A stretch of DNA of 64,000 nt, from NCBI RefSeq assembly GCF_041886205.1, contig NZ_CP169029.1, one strand, 5' to 3'. Below, piece after piece: positions 54,001-60,000 of the stretch. The position numbers are program-made. Origin of the DNA: Escherichia coli. GTDB taxonomy: Bacteria; Pseudomonadota; Gammaproteobacteria; Enterobacterales; Enterobacteriaceae. Position 1 is the stretch's first letter, and every line of letters starts with the position of its first letter.

Positions 54001-57000
54001 GGGCTAAAGCGCAATGGCGTGGCGCTGGAAGGTTCGCTGGCGGATGAGCCTCTGCTGCTGGGCGATATCATCCTGGTTGTTGGTAACTGGAAACTGATCG
54101 GTATGCTGGCCAAACAGGGCCGCGACTTCGTAGCGCTGAACTTACCGGAAGAGGTGAGTGAAGCATCGCCCGCGCACAGCCAGGCACCCCATGCCATTTT
54201 CTGTCTGGTGCTAATGGTGGCGTTAATGCTGACCGATGAAATTCCTAATCCTGTTGCCGCTATCATCGCCTGCCTGCTGATGGGGAAATTCCGCTGTATA
54301 GATGCTGAAAGCGCCTATAAATCCATTCACTGGCCGAGCATTATTTTGATCGTTGGGATGATGCCGTTTGCTGTGGCATTACAGAAAACGGGAGGTGTCG
54401 CGCTGGCGGTGAAAGGGCTGATGGACATTGGCGGCGGTTACGGGCCACATATGATGCTGGGTTGTTTGTTTGTCTTGTCGGCGGTTATTGGGCTATTTAT
54501 CTCTAATACCGCGACGGCGGTGTTGATGGCTCCGATTGCGCTGGCTGCTGCCAAAACGATGGGTGTGTCGCCTTATCCATTCGCGATGGTCGTGGCGATG
54601 GCAGCATCCGCCGCCTTTATGACACCGGTTTCTTCACCTGTTAACACACTGGTTTTAGGTCCGGGAAATTACAGCTTCAGTGACTTTGTGAAGTTGGGGG
54701 TACCGTTCACCATTATCGTGATGGCGGTTTGTGTGGTGATGATCCCGATGCTGTTTCCGTTTTGACAAGAGCGTGATGTCGCATCCGGCGCTTATTGCCT
54801 GATGCGACGCAGACTCCGGCTGCTTACAGCGGTGAATCCTGGCTAATCTCATCGAGCGAAAGATGGAAGCTGGGAACAAATACTTCCATGAAGTAGTCCA
54901 TCTCCTGGCTGCGACGCGCTTCAAGCGTCGCTTCCAGTCGCGTTTTTGCCAGCAAGAATTCATTATTTCCGGCCGCGAGTTCTTCCAGACATTTCAGATA
55001 TGCACACAGTGCATCTGCCTGTTTCACCAACGATTTTTCTTCATCGCTATATGCATGCTCGTCAATTAACGGCGCAAAGATATCCCGCAGCTCTTCCGGA
55101 ACCATATCGACCAGTTTTTGCTGAGCGATTTTTTCAATAGCCTTGTACTCCTGAGCGATTTGCGAATTGAAGTATTTCACCGGAGTAGGGAGATCGCCGG
55201 TGAGCACTTCTGAGGCATCGTGGTACATCGCCAGTAAAGCGATACGTTCGGCGTTGACATTACCGCCAAATTTCCGATTTTTGATAGCTGCCAGCGCATG
55301 GGCGACCATCGCTACCTGCAAACTGTGTTCGGACACATTTTCCGTCCGCACGTTGCGCATGAGCGGCCAGCGGTTAATGAGTTTCAGGCGGGAGAGATGG
55401 GCAAAAAAATGGCTCTGTTTCATAGTGACCTTACGTATGATGACATCATCAGGTCATTGTGGCGGGATAACACTGCCGGATGCAATCTCCGGCAGTGAAA
55501 TTAAGATTACAGCTGATGATAACCAGAAAGGAAACGCGCGAACTTGCTCAAAGACAGCTCGATATCATCGACACGCGGTAGCGTGACAATGCGGAAGTGA
55601 TCCGGCCACGGCCAGTTGAATGCCGTCCCTTGCACCAACAGAACTTTTTCCTGCAACAGGAAATCCAGCACCATTTTCTGATCGTCGTGAATGTTAAAGC
55701 GTTTGGCGTCGATTTTCGGGAACATATACAGCGCACCACGAGGTTTCACGCAGGAAACGCCCGGAATATCGTTGATCAGTTCCCACGCGCGGTTACGCTG
55801 CTCATAAAGACGACCGCCAGGGGTAATAAATTCACTAATGCTCTGATAACCACCCAGCGCGGTCTGAATGGCGTGTTGCGCAGGAACGTTAGCACACAGG
55901 CGCATTGAAGCCAGCATTTCCAGACCTTCGATGTAGCCTTTGGCGTGTTTTTTCGGCCCGTTCAACACCATCCACCCCTGACGGAAGCCTGCAACGCGGT
56001 ACGTTTTCGACAGTCCGTTAAAGGTAATGGTCAGCAGGTCAGGTGCCAGTGGCGCAATTGAGTGATGCTCAGCATCGTCGTAGAGAATTTTGTCATAAAT
56101 TTCATCGGCGAAGATAATGAGATTATGCTGACGTGCAATCTCCACAATCTCCATTAAAAGCTCTTTGGAATATACCGCGCCGGTTGGGTTATTTGGGTTG
56201 ATAATAACGATCCCACGCGTACGAGGCGTAATTTTAGCGCGAATATCATCGAGGTCCGGGAACCAGTCAGAGGATTCATCGCAAAGATAATGCACCGCTT
56301 TACCGCTGGAAAGCGAAACCGCCGCGGTCCAGAGTGGGTAATCTGGTGCAGGAACCAACATTTCGTCCCCGCTGTTCAGCAATGCCTGCATTGCCTGAAC
56401 GATCAGCTCCGATACACCATTGCCGATGTAAATATCTTCCACGGTAACATCACGCATGCCACGAGCCTGGTAGTGCTGCATGATGGCTTTACGCGCGGAG
56501 TAAAGCCCTTTGGAATCGCAATACCCTTGAGCGGTAGGCAGGTTGCGTATCACGTCAACGAGGATTTCATCTGGCGCGTCAAAACCGAATGGGGCTGGGT
56601 TGCCGATGTTCAGTTTCAGTACCTTGTTACCTTCTTCTTCCAGGCGTTTTGCTTCTTTCAGCACCGGACCACGGATGTCATAACAGACATTCTCTAATTT
56701 GCTGGATTTTTCAATGGGGGACATGAATCTTGACCTTTTTTGCTGTTATCGCCACTCCCTGCCGTGGAAGTCAGCTTAGAACAATGTACTCCCCCAGGAC
56801 GGTGTTTTGAAGGTCTGCAGAATAAGATTTTGCCAGAGGGGAAGGCTCGATTGTGCTGTTAATAACTTAATAATGACAAATAATGAGGTGTATATGCTTT
56901 AAATGCAATATTATATAGTGAATTGTTCTGATTCTTAATTGAAAGTCTGGTTTTTTTATCTGTAAGATAATTGTGTGAAAATACCTCATTTAAGAATTCA

Positions 57001-60000
57001 CTAATGAAACGCGATGATGATATTTCCGCATTACGGAGAGTTTAACAGCGTGATGATTTCCGAGGTGTCGCAATGGGGGCAAGGTGTGAAACTATTGTTA
57101 AGCGGAATTAATGAATGAGGATGATGCTAATTAATTATTATTTAATATTCAAAAAGGTTTTGATGTGCTTATTAATAATAGAAGATTACTTTGCCTAACA
57201 TAACATAACTTTGCATCAGATAATTCGCAATGATCCTTATAAATAAAAGGTTTTTGGGGTAAAATGCTCGCATAAATGACGGATCCCTGCTCTTGATGCC
57301 GCCTCACCATTGCTGTTTGTACGTGTTCGCGTATGACCAGCGATGCTGCACGAGAGTGGAACAAGGACTCACATTTACATTTATACAAACACGCGCATGT
57401 CATAAATAGAAAAGAGTGAGTAACTTAATAGATATGCGATCCCTGAAGATATATTCTGTGATCTACTTCAGGCATTATAACGGAACAATGTGAGTCGCTT
57501 TTTTAGTGCAACTCATATGCATTTTTACTTTCGTCCGGGTTCCGGATGAAACTGCCAGGGAGGCACATTACAAATGGAATTGCTTGTTTGTGTGTGCACA
57601 GCATTAACCAGCTCAGTATGAGCCGCCAGTAAGTGATAATATATGATAAGTGCAAATCGTCCGATAATTAACCTCGACCTCGATCTGCTGAGAACATTTG
57701 TTGCTGTTGCCGATCTGAACACTTTTGCTGCCGCAGCTGCCGCTGTGTGTCGTACTCAGTCCGCCGTAAGTCAGCAAATGCAGCGTCTGGAACAACTCGT
57801 TGGGAAAGAACTGTTCGCTCGTCACGGTCGCAACAAACTGTTAACTGAACATGGCATTCAACTTCTTGGTTACGCCAGGAAAATCCTGCGTTTTAATGAT
57901 GAGGCCTGCTCATCATTAATGTTCAGTAATCTTCAGGGCGTGTTAACTATCGGTGCTTCAGATGAATCTGCCGATACGATCTTACCTTTCCTGTTAAATC
58001 GCGTGAGTTCGGTTTATCCGAAATTAGCGCTGGATGTCCGCGTTAAACGTAATGCCTATATGGCAGAAATGCTGGAATCCCAGGAAGTGGATTTGATGGT
58101 AACCACCCATCGTCCTTCTACCTTTAAGGCATTGAACCTGCGTACCTCGCCAACACACTGGTACTGCGCAGCGGAATACGTATTGCAAAAAGGTGAGCCG
58201 ATCCCTCTTGTATTGCTGGATGATCCAAGTCCGTTTCGCGATATGGTGCTGGCGACACTTAATAAAGCAGAAATTCCCTGGCGACTGGCTTATGTCGCCT
58301 CGACGCTTCCGGCCGTTCGTGCGGCAGTGAAAGCCGGTCTTGGCGTGACGGCAAGGCCGGTCGAGATGATGAGTCCGGACCTGCGTGTCCTAAGTGGAGT
58401 AGATGGCTTACCGCCGCTACCCGATACCGAATATTTGCTGTGCTATGACCCGTCCAGTAATAATGAGCTGGCCCAGGTGATCTATCAGGCGATGGAGAGC
58501 TACCATAATCCGTGGCAATACAGCCCAATGTCTGCTCCGGAAGGGGATGATTCATTGTTGATTGAAAGGGATATCGAGTAATCGACGGACGATAGATAAT
58601 TCCTGAGACAATAGTGTAAAAAACGAGCCGCTGGGGGGGTTTTAAACCCCAGCGGCTTTTTTTTAGTAAAAATCCTTCCTCGCATAGTGCAGAACGCACA
58701 AAACTGTTCATTTTTCAATCACCAGAGATTCACGTCCCGAACGCACAAATAATCGCCTGAAAAAAATCACCTGCTACAATGATGTTAAAAAATACGTAAA
58801 TTTGTTGCTGCGTTTTTGTTATGGAATGACAAAAGCGTGTCACAGATCAAGAAAATACTCTCTTTTGGGGGGAGGAATCGACACAAATTCCTGTCAAAAT
58901 AGACCCGTATTTTTTCCATTGCTTCACAACGGACACGATTCAACAACATCTAATTATCCTGGAGTCGTCAAGGATCTGGGGTGAAAGGGCATTAAATGCT
59001 AATGGTGTTGATATTATGTAAACTAATGTGAAGAAACTTTTGTTAAAGTTGACAAAAGGTTATAGAAAGGAGTAAAAGACCACATCAATTAGCTGTATAA
59101 AAGAATTTCTACAGTGATTGTAAGGTTTTTTTTATTCCTCCCCATGAATCGATGTGGCGTCCATCTGCCGTGAAGAGCAGTGAATCTGGCGCTACTTTTG
59201 ATGAGTAAGCAATGAGTATGTCAACATCCACTGAAGTCATCGCTCATCACTGGGCATTCGCTATCTTTCTTATCGTTGCCATTGGCCTGTGTTGCCTGAT
59301 GCTGGTAGGCGGTTGGTTTTTAGGCGGTCGCGCACGCGCGAGGTCGAAAAACGTGCCGTTTGAATCCGGTATCGACTCGGTCGGCTCCGCCCGCTTACGC
59401 CTGTCCGCCAAGTTTTATCTGGTGGCCATGTTCTTCGTTATCTTCGACGTTGAAGCGCTGTATCTGTTCGCATGGTCAACCTCTATCCGCGAAAGCGGCT
59501 GGGTAGGCTTTGTGGAAGCTGCAATTTTTATTTTTGTGTTACTGGCAGGTCTGGTTTATCTGGTGCGTATTGGCGCGCTGGACTGGACGCCCGCGCGTTC
59601 ACGCCGCGAGCGTATGAACCCGGAAACGAACAGTATCGCTAATCGTCAACGCTAACCGCGAGGCATTAAGATGGATTATACGCTCACCCGCATAGATCCC
59701 AACGGTGAGAACGACCGTTACCCCCTGCAAAAGCAGGAGATCGTAACCGACCCTCTGGAGCAAGAAGTTAACAAAAACGTGTTTATGGGCAAGCTCAATG
59801 ACATGGTTAACTGGGGTCGTAAAAACTCAATTTGGCCGTATAACTTCGGTCTTTCCTGCTGTTACGTTGAGATGGTGACTTCGTTTACCGCGGTGCATGA
59901 CGTGGCGCGTTTTGGCGCAGAAGTATTGCGTGCTTCGCCGCGTCAGGCTGACCTGATGGTGGTTGCAGGAACCTGCTTTACCAAAATGGCACCGGTTATT

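Follow-up and report, generated by a model that had tools for sequence, protein, structure and literature searches.

The leaders of rpoS, flhDC and csgD in Escherichia coli are several hundred nucleotides (nt) long, are bound by Hfq and are targeted by multiple small RNAs, including ArcZ, RprA and McaS. They lie within long AT-rich spacers that receive many transcription-factor inputs. Here we analyze a spacer of the same kind, the one between the divergent genes alaA and lrhA, in a stretch of 64,000 nt from an E. coli genome (RefSeq assembly GCF_041886205.1, contig NZ_CP169029.1). We call this whole stretch the window, number positions from its first letter and mark the strand by + or -. Shimada et al. 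(2014) named a "920 bp-long lrhA-alaA" spacer, noted its stress-gene promoters and numerous transcription-factor sites, and grouped it with the csgD-csgB and nanC-fimB spacers. Unlike for the rpoS-type leaders, the reported small-RNA effects on lrhA are all repressive, and no mechanism of activation or Rho anti-termination has been reported for it.

Two further groups of leaders are close to this locus. Among the orthologues of lrhA, hexA of Photorhabdus and Xenorhabdus and pecT of Dickeya are repressed by ArcZ, which represses translation by pairing tens of nucleotides ahead of the start codon (at positions -50 to -42 of hexA and -84 to -58 of Dickeya pecT). In Serratia the gene pigU stands in the same arrangement with alaA, and its expression goes up when the spacer carries an insertion. 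The leaders of these orthologues differ in sequence, most of which is unconserved even within the Enterobacteriaceae; only the last ~90 nt and the promoter are kept. Leaders bound by CsrA at GGA motifs form the other group. The lrhA leader resembles them in having a peak with three GGA in crosslinking and immunoprecipitation (CLIP) data and in being derepressed in a csrA mutant, and it departs from them in that its peak is clear of the Shine-Dalgarno region. The closest system of all is the E. coli lrhA 5' untranslated region (UTR) as already described (PMC10578931, PMC4152368): it is the identical locus, and nothing in the window differs from it in kind.

We conclude, with a probability of roughly 0.88, that the spacer is a composite of three regulatory parts, namely the alaA promoter and leader, the AT-rich DNA upstream of both promoters, and the lrhA 5' UTR. 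The positions, conservation patterns and start sites given below come directly from the sequence and from published data mapped onto it, and the genetic and biochemical results are those of the published studies.

The spacer and its conservation

In the window, alaA is an open reading frame (ORF) of 405 amino acids at 55507-56724 (-) and lrhA an ORF of 312 amino acids at 57643-58581 (+). RefSeq annotation of MG1655 and of strain VE-T9, which is nearly identical to the window, agrees with both. The divergent genes leave a spacer at 56725-57642, with 918 bp (919 bp for its counterpart in K-12) and a G+C content of 0.38 against 0.516 for the window. The composition is uneven, with 0.32 at 56816-57235 and 0.43 in the lrhA leader. 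A reading of the sequence alone had described this gap as AT-rich and unusually long, which holds: in the matching 64-kb neighbourhood it ranks first among 62 intergenic gaps (median 70 bp), ahead of two with 651 and 630 bp. The K-12 RefSeq record has no gene or other feature annotated within it.

The spacer was found in 5425 of the 5426 complete E. coli genomes searched, with at least 95% identity in all except one, and 42 of the 5425 are without a contiguous copy. Two strains with the insertion sequence IS1 at this place were seen along the way. In E. coli SF10, IS1 lies inside the spacer and lrhA is truncated too. In E. coli SCPM-O-B-12142, IS1 is joined to position 166 of the spacer and the DNA from lrhA up to elaD is missing, a stretch that would include the nuo operon. 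Over the spacer and short flanks, pairwise alignment of the window with K-12 gave 9 substitutions and one 1-bp indel. The sites mapped below are free of these differences except at 57271, one base before the lrhA transcription start, where the window has C and K-12 has G.

For the comparison across the Enterobacteriaceae we scanned one genome per species for LrhA. Among the 80 loci found, 77 had divergent, neighbouring alaA and lrhA, and their spacers were aligned with that of the window by MAFFT (78 genomes in all). In the 77 genomes the spacer measures 764-1140 bp, mostly 920-1010 bp, with a G+C content of 0.35-0.44. This shared synteny, length and composition indicates that the long AT-rich spacer is ancestral in the Enterobacteriaceae. 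Conservation within it is concentrated in four parts: the alaA promoter with its leader, a set of islands upstream of the lrhA promoter, the distal lrhA promoter P1, and the last ~90 nt of the lrhA leader, which include AAAUGGAAUUGCUU, CACAGCA and the AAGUGA region. Sequence conservation is lacking in the leader at 57275-57550 and in the core of the upstream DNA at 56833-57085.

Transcription start sites and promoters

The sequence-only reading had allowed for a long lrhA leader, and such a leader was in fact already published: Melamed et al. (2023; eLife, PMC10578931) describe "an unusually long 371 nt 5' UTR" for lrhA. To place it in the window we used the primer SM079 of their lrhA fusion. 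The lrhA part of this primer begins with ATAAATGACGG, and its start, ATAAATGACGGATCCCTGCT, falls at window position 57272, 371 nt before the AUG, so that the 5' UTR occupies 57272..57642 (+). This far-upstream start is preceded by a recognizable promoter. The distal promoter P1 (57237..57265, +) has the -35 element TTATAA at 57237-57242, a 17-bp spacer and the -10 element TAAAAT at 57260-57265, and the -10 hexamer ends 6 nt upstream of the published +1. The -35 element is identical in 63 of the 78 genomes, and the -10 element is TAAGAT, TAGGAT or TAAAAT in 68 of them; in most other genera it reads TAAGAT. From the alignment, the lrhA leader would be 333-586 nt long in the 78 genomes (median 399), and this length varies far more than the distance between the two -35 elements given below.

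Two internal capped 5' ends lie within this leader. The operon table of the SMRT-Cappable-seq study lists starts for b2289 (lrhA) at K-12 positions 2406820 and 2406799 in reverse orientation. We carried the K-12 start coordinates to the window by pairwise alignment, which puts these ends at 57464 and 57485 (+) and gives leaders of 179 and 158 nt. The sequence surrounding them is poorly conserved. A 179-nt lrhA UTR is also what the CsrA study of Potts et al. (2017) took.

The same table has b2290/b2291 (alaA-yfbR) starting at K-12 2407508 in forward orientation, which corresponds to window position 56777 (-) and leaves alaA a 5' UTR of 53 nt (56725..56777, -). At the correct distance from this start lies a core promoter at 56783..56811 (-), with the -35 element TTCAAA at 56811..56806, a 17-bp spacer and the -10 element TACATT at 56788..56783. 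The -10 element is identical in 74 of the 78 genomes and the -35 element in 71, while the 17 bp between them are variable. A second candidate on the minus strand, the consensus promoter TTAAGA and TATAAT separated by 17 bp (56938..56910), was rejected as the alaA promoter because it is unconserved and none of the capped 5' ends among the SMRT-Cappable-seq rows listed corresponds to it. At least four start sites are thus mapped in the spacer, three for lrhA and one for alaA, and the suggestion that it holds multiple promoters is borne out by the capped ends at 57464, 57485 and 56777.

The short alaA leader carries a conserved hairpin at 56752..56773 (-), from +5 to +26 of the transcript, which reads UGACUUCC-ACGGCA-GGGAGUGG. 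Across the 78 genomes the ACGGCA loop and the two C-G pairs that close it are almost invariant. In the alignment, 88.5% of the hairpin cells are paired, as compared with 34-62% when the partner strand is slid. One pair alternates between AU, GC and GU, and the U-G/U-A wobbles fit the sense strand of alaA only. On its own, the E. coli sequence of the hairpin folds no better than shuffles. Our literature search found no description of this hairpin, and none of GcvB or other regulators acting on the alaA leader.

The lrhA leader as a target of Hfq, small RNAs and CsrA

Bilusic et al. (2014; RNA Biol, PMC4152368) recovered an Hfq-bound RNA from upstream of lrhA by co-immunoprecipitation, and saw it on northern blots as bands of 150 and 350 nt. 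They showed that the signal comes from an lrhA transcript of ~1.5 kb, which accumulates when hfq is mutated, and interpreted the bands as leader fragments. Melamed et al. (2023; PMC10578931) obtained chimeras of the lrhA leader with UhpU, ArcZ, RprA and McaS by RNA interaction by ligation and sequencing (RIL-seq), and reported that UhpU, ArcZ and RprA repress lrhA, the effect of ArcZ being seen on an lrhA-lacZ fusion.

The UhpU site can be placed from published mutations. In the oligonucleotide table of these authors, the lrhA-M1 gBlock carries G in place of C57627, and the primers for UhpU-M1 make the complementary change of G to C. These compensatory mutations locate the pairing site CGCCAGU at 57624..57630 (+), directly upstream of the Shine-Dalgarno-like stretch AAGUGA that we recognize in the sequence at 57631-57636 (+). 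Combining the lrhA-M1 and UhpU-M1 mutations restores repression (Melamed et al. 2023, PMC10578931). In the alignment this site is limited to the group of Escherichia, Salmonella and Citrobacter.

For the other small RNAs we offer candidate sites as leads only. A putative ArcZ site, CUGCCAGGGA at 57552..57561 (+), lies between 91 and 82 nt ahead of the AUG; the ArcZ seed forms ~10 continuous base pairs there, indistinguishable from shuffles. A putative site shared by RprA and McaS, GUGCACAGCA at 57594..57603 (+), is complementary to the seed UGCUGUGUGU. We noticed this complementarity by eye and in the seed scan, with energies no better than those of shuffled leaders. The CACAGC within it (57597-57602) is kept in at least 90% of 76 genomes. 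These scans were made with seeds only and compared with 60 dinucleotide shuffles of the leader; scans with full-length small RNAs gave unrealistic pairing via terminator hairpins and were discarded. The assignment of small RNAs to the leader rests on the published experiments and not on our own computation, and the exact sites of ArcZ, RprA and McaS are to be read as putative.

CsrA meets the leader in the same proximal part. The sequence of peak_226 in the CLIP-seq data of Potts et al. (2017) matches 57527-57612 (+) exactly and holds three GGA motifs, at 57544, 57559 and 57576. The peak contains the nearly invariant AAAUGGAAUUGCUU (57572-57585), and one of the three motifs sits within the nearly invariant AAAUGGAAUUG. 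In the csrA mutant both ribosome footprints on lrhA and lrhA RNA went up (Potts et al. 2017). Our literature search found no mechanistic study of CsrA on lrhA. Because this peak, 30-116 nt upstream of the AUG, stays outside the Shine-Dalgarno region, simple occlusion of the ribosome is not obvious.

As a whole, the lrhA leader folds more stably than its shuffles (z = -2.76). RNAalifold returned no consensus structure for the proximal leader, which is probably due to invariant motifs standing among flanks that align poorly. We also considered Rho-dependent attenuation. The leader has no stretch with the C-rich, G-poor signature of Rho loading; in its most C-rich 60-nt window C minus G is only 5. 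We therefore dropped this candidate, for which we found no support in the literature either.

The DNA between the two promoters

Between the two promoters lie 425 positions of AT-rich DNA (56812..57236; G+C ~0.32) that are upstream of both, delimited by composition and conservation. The alignment shows conserved islands in it at 56818-56832, 57086-57150, 57174-57183 and 57217-57233. The distance between the -35 elements of alaA and lrhA is nearly fixed, at 410-433 bp in 72 of the 78 genomes, even though ~250 bp of it (56833-57085) have lost all similarity.

Several proteins have been reported to bind in the spacer: the sigma-70 holoenzyme in a systematic evolution of ligands by exponential enrichment (SELEX) screen (Shimada et al. 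2014), OmpR by chromatin immunoprecipitation (ChIP), and Lrp, which binds and activates the lrhA promoter. We assign the published binding of OmpR, Lrp and sigma-70 to this upstream DNA at the level of the region and not of exact sites, and we infer that the conserved islands play roles in it. Transposon insertions in the spacer lead to higher expression of lrhA in E. coli and of pigU in Serratia.

Taken together, nearly all of the spacer's content is accounted for by the lrhA leader, the two promoters and the upstream control DNA.

Alternative explanations

The sequence-only reading had also raised the possibility of an unannotated small RNA or micro-protein in the spacer, and neither found support. 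A small regulatory RNA transcribed independently, from its own promoter to its own terminator, would agree with the Hfq-bound 'ig-lrhA-alaA' RNA of Bilusic et al. (PMC4152368), which has bands of 150 and 350 nt, and with the internal capped 5' ends at 57464 and 57485. However, the same authors traced the signal to the 1.5-kb lrhA transcript and took the bands to be leader fragments, and SMRT-Cappable-seq assigned the transcripts from 57464 and 57485 to b2289 (lrhA), with no separate unit. A consensus scan for intrinsic terminators found none inside 56725-57642 on either strand, the two sites that it did find lying in the coding regions of alaA and lrhA. A search of 55000-60000 against Rfam 15 (E <= 1) gave no match in the spacer, only a chance match to mir-136 inside lrhA. 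With neither a terminator-like site in the spacer nor a match to a curated RNA family, a stand-alone small RNA is improbable here.

Less probable still is that one of the short ORFs is translated into a micro-protein or acts as a regulatory upstream ORF. The three ORFs pointed out from the sequence, at 57004-57045 (+), 57050-57118 (+) and 57149-57403 (-), are all present, and ORFs of 20-84 codons occur on both strands. Candidates would be the 84-codon ORF at 57149-57403 (-) and the 28-codon ORF at 57546-57632 (+). The latter belongs to the conserved section of the transcribed leader. It is the only ORF to survive in E. albertii, and a divergent Escherichia also has it intact. Nevertheless, the frames are not kept: among 17 small ORFs with at least 20 codons, 14 have no intact counterpart in any of the 77 related genomes, and three have one in only 1-3 genomes, all close relatives. 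Ten spacer ORFs scanned against Pfam had no match, K-12 RefSeq has no gene there, and among the starts inspected by eye none had an AGGAGG-like motif at a suitable distance. The 84-codon ORF, moreover, runs across P1 on the strand opposite to the leader.

Finally, that the AT-rich DNA is a remnant of a decayed gene or of DNA gained horizontally or from a mobile element, silenced rather than functional, as its low G+C content (0.32 in the core, typical of acquired DNA) and the IS1 insertions of some strains might suggest, is very improbable, given that 5425 of 5426 E. coli genomes carry the spacer, a distribution that is not patchy, that synteny, similar length and similar G+C content extend to 77 other Enterobacteriaceae genomes, and that no remnants of protein domains and no similarity to mobile elements were found, the plasmid and phage searches returning only chromosome-sized or mislabelled records or unannotated host-like DNA.

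Other observations in the window

Just downstream of lrhA, the lrhA-nuoA spacer (58582-59211) is also long (630 bp) and AT-rich (G+C 0.35-0.41). A further CsrA CLIP peak of Potts et al. (2017), peak_225, spans the 3' end of lrhA and the 5' UTR of nuoA. Near the start of the window, an ORF of 420 codons beside fadL (47-1309, -) has a G+C content of 0.30-0.40 and forms the lowest-G+C stretch of the window; its counterpart in VE-T9 has an internal stop and bears the annotation of a hypothetical pseudogene.

Discussion

We propose that the three parts of the spacer work as follows. The first, ~90 bp beside alaA, consists of a conserved sigma-70-type promoter and the 53-nt leader. The second, ~420 bp of AT-rich DNA upstream of both promoters, would be where the factors published for the locus, Lrp, OmpR and LrhA itself, act, with the conserved islands placed within ~185 bp of the distal lrhA promoter. 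The third, the last 371 bp, is transcribed as the lrhA 5' UTR and serves as a platform for post-transcriptional control. On this platform, Hfq binds and lowers the lrhA mRNA, UhpU pairs beside the ribosome-binding site and blocks translation, and ArcZ and RprA repress lrhA as well. CsrA binds at the GGA motifs, in a stretch 30-116 nt ahead of the AUG, and is associated with lower lrhA expression. The two internal starts, which appear weaker, would yield shorter leaders that retain the conserved proximal 90 nt.

Some observations weigh against this three-part interpretation. The start at 57272 is absent among the SMRT-Cappable-seq rows listed, where the only lrhA starts are 57464 and 57485; Bilusic et al. 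(2014; PMC4152368), on the other hand, found no start site near the short annotated lrhA UTR. These data conflict on the relative use of the starts at 57272, 57464 and 57485. In the upstream DNA, no function has been assigned to the ~250 unconserved bp at 56833-57085, and the lrhA-alaA row in the table of Shimada et al. carries no H-NS flag, so that silencing by H-NS is undocumented there. In the leader, the duplex energies of ArcZ, RprA, McaS and UhpU are all no better than with shuffled leaders.

Two features of the compound region lead us to a tentative proposal, which we consider possible and rather doubtful. The alaA hairpin might be an uncharacterized cis-regulatory or stabilizing element in the expression of the alanine transaminase, and the fixed 410-433 bp between the -35 elements might reflect an architectural constraint, for example a single complex of Lrp or of a nucleoid protein that serves both promoters.

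The main content of the locus, that is, a long controlled leader, multiple promoters and upstream control DNA, is already known. The spacer looked empty from the sequence alone because RefSeq annotates none of these elements. What our analysis adds is one coordinate map that joins scattered data, namely the three lrhA starts, the alaA start, the CsrA peak and the UhpU site, together with an account of which parts of the spacer are conserved across the family. LrhA represses flhDC, and with it motility, as well as rprA and the translation of rpoS, and its orthologues control virulence, secondary metabolism and CRISPR-Cas. In view of these targets, the long lrhA leader is a real regulatory hub, though one that has already been described.

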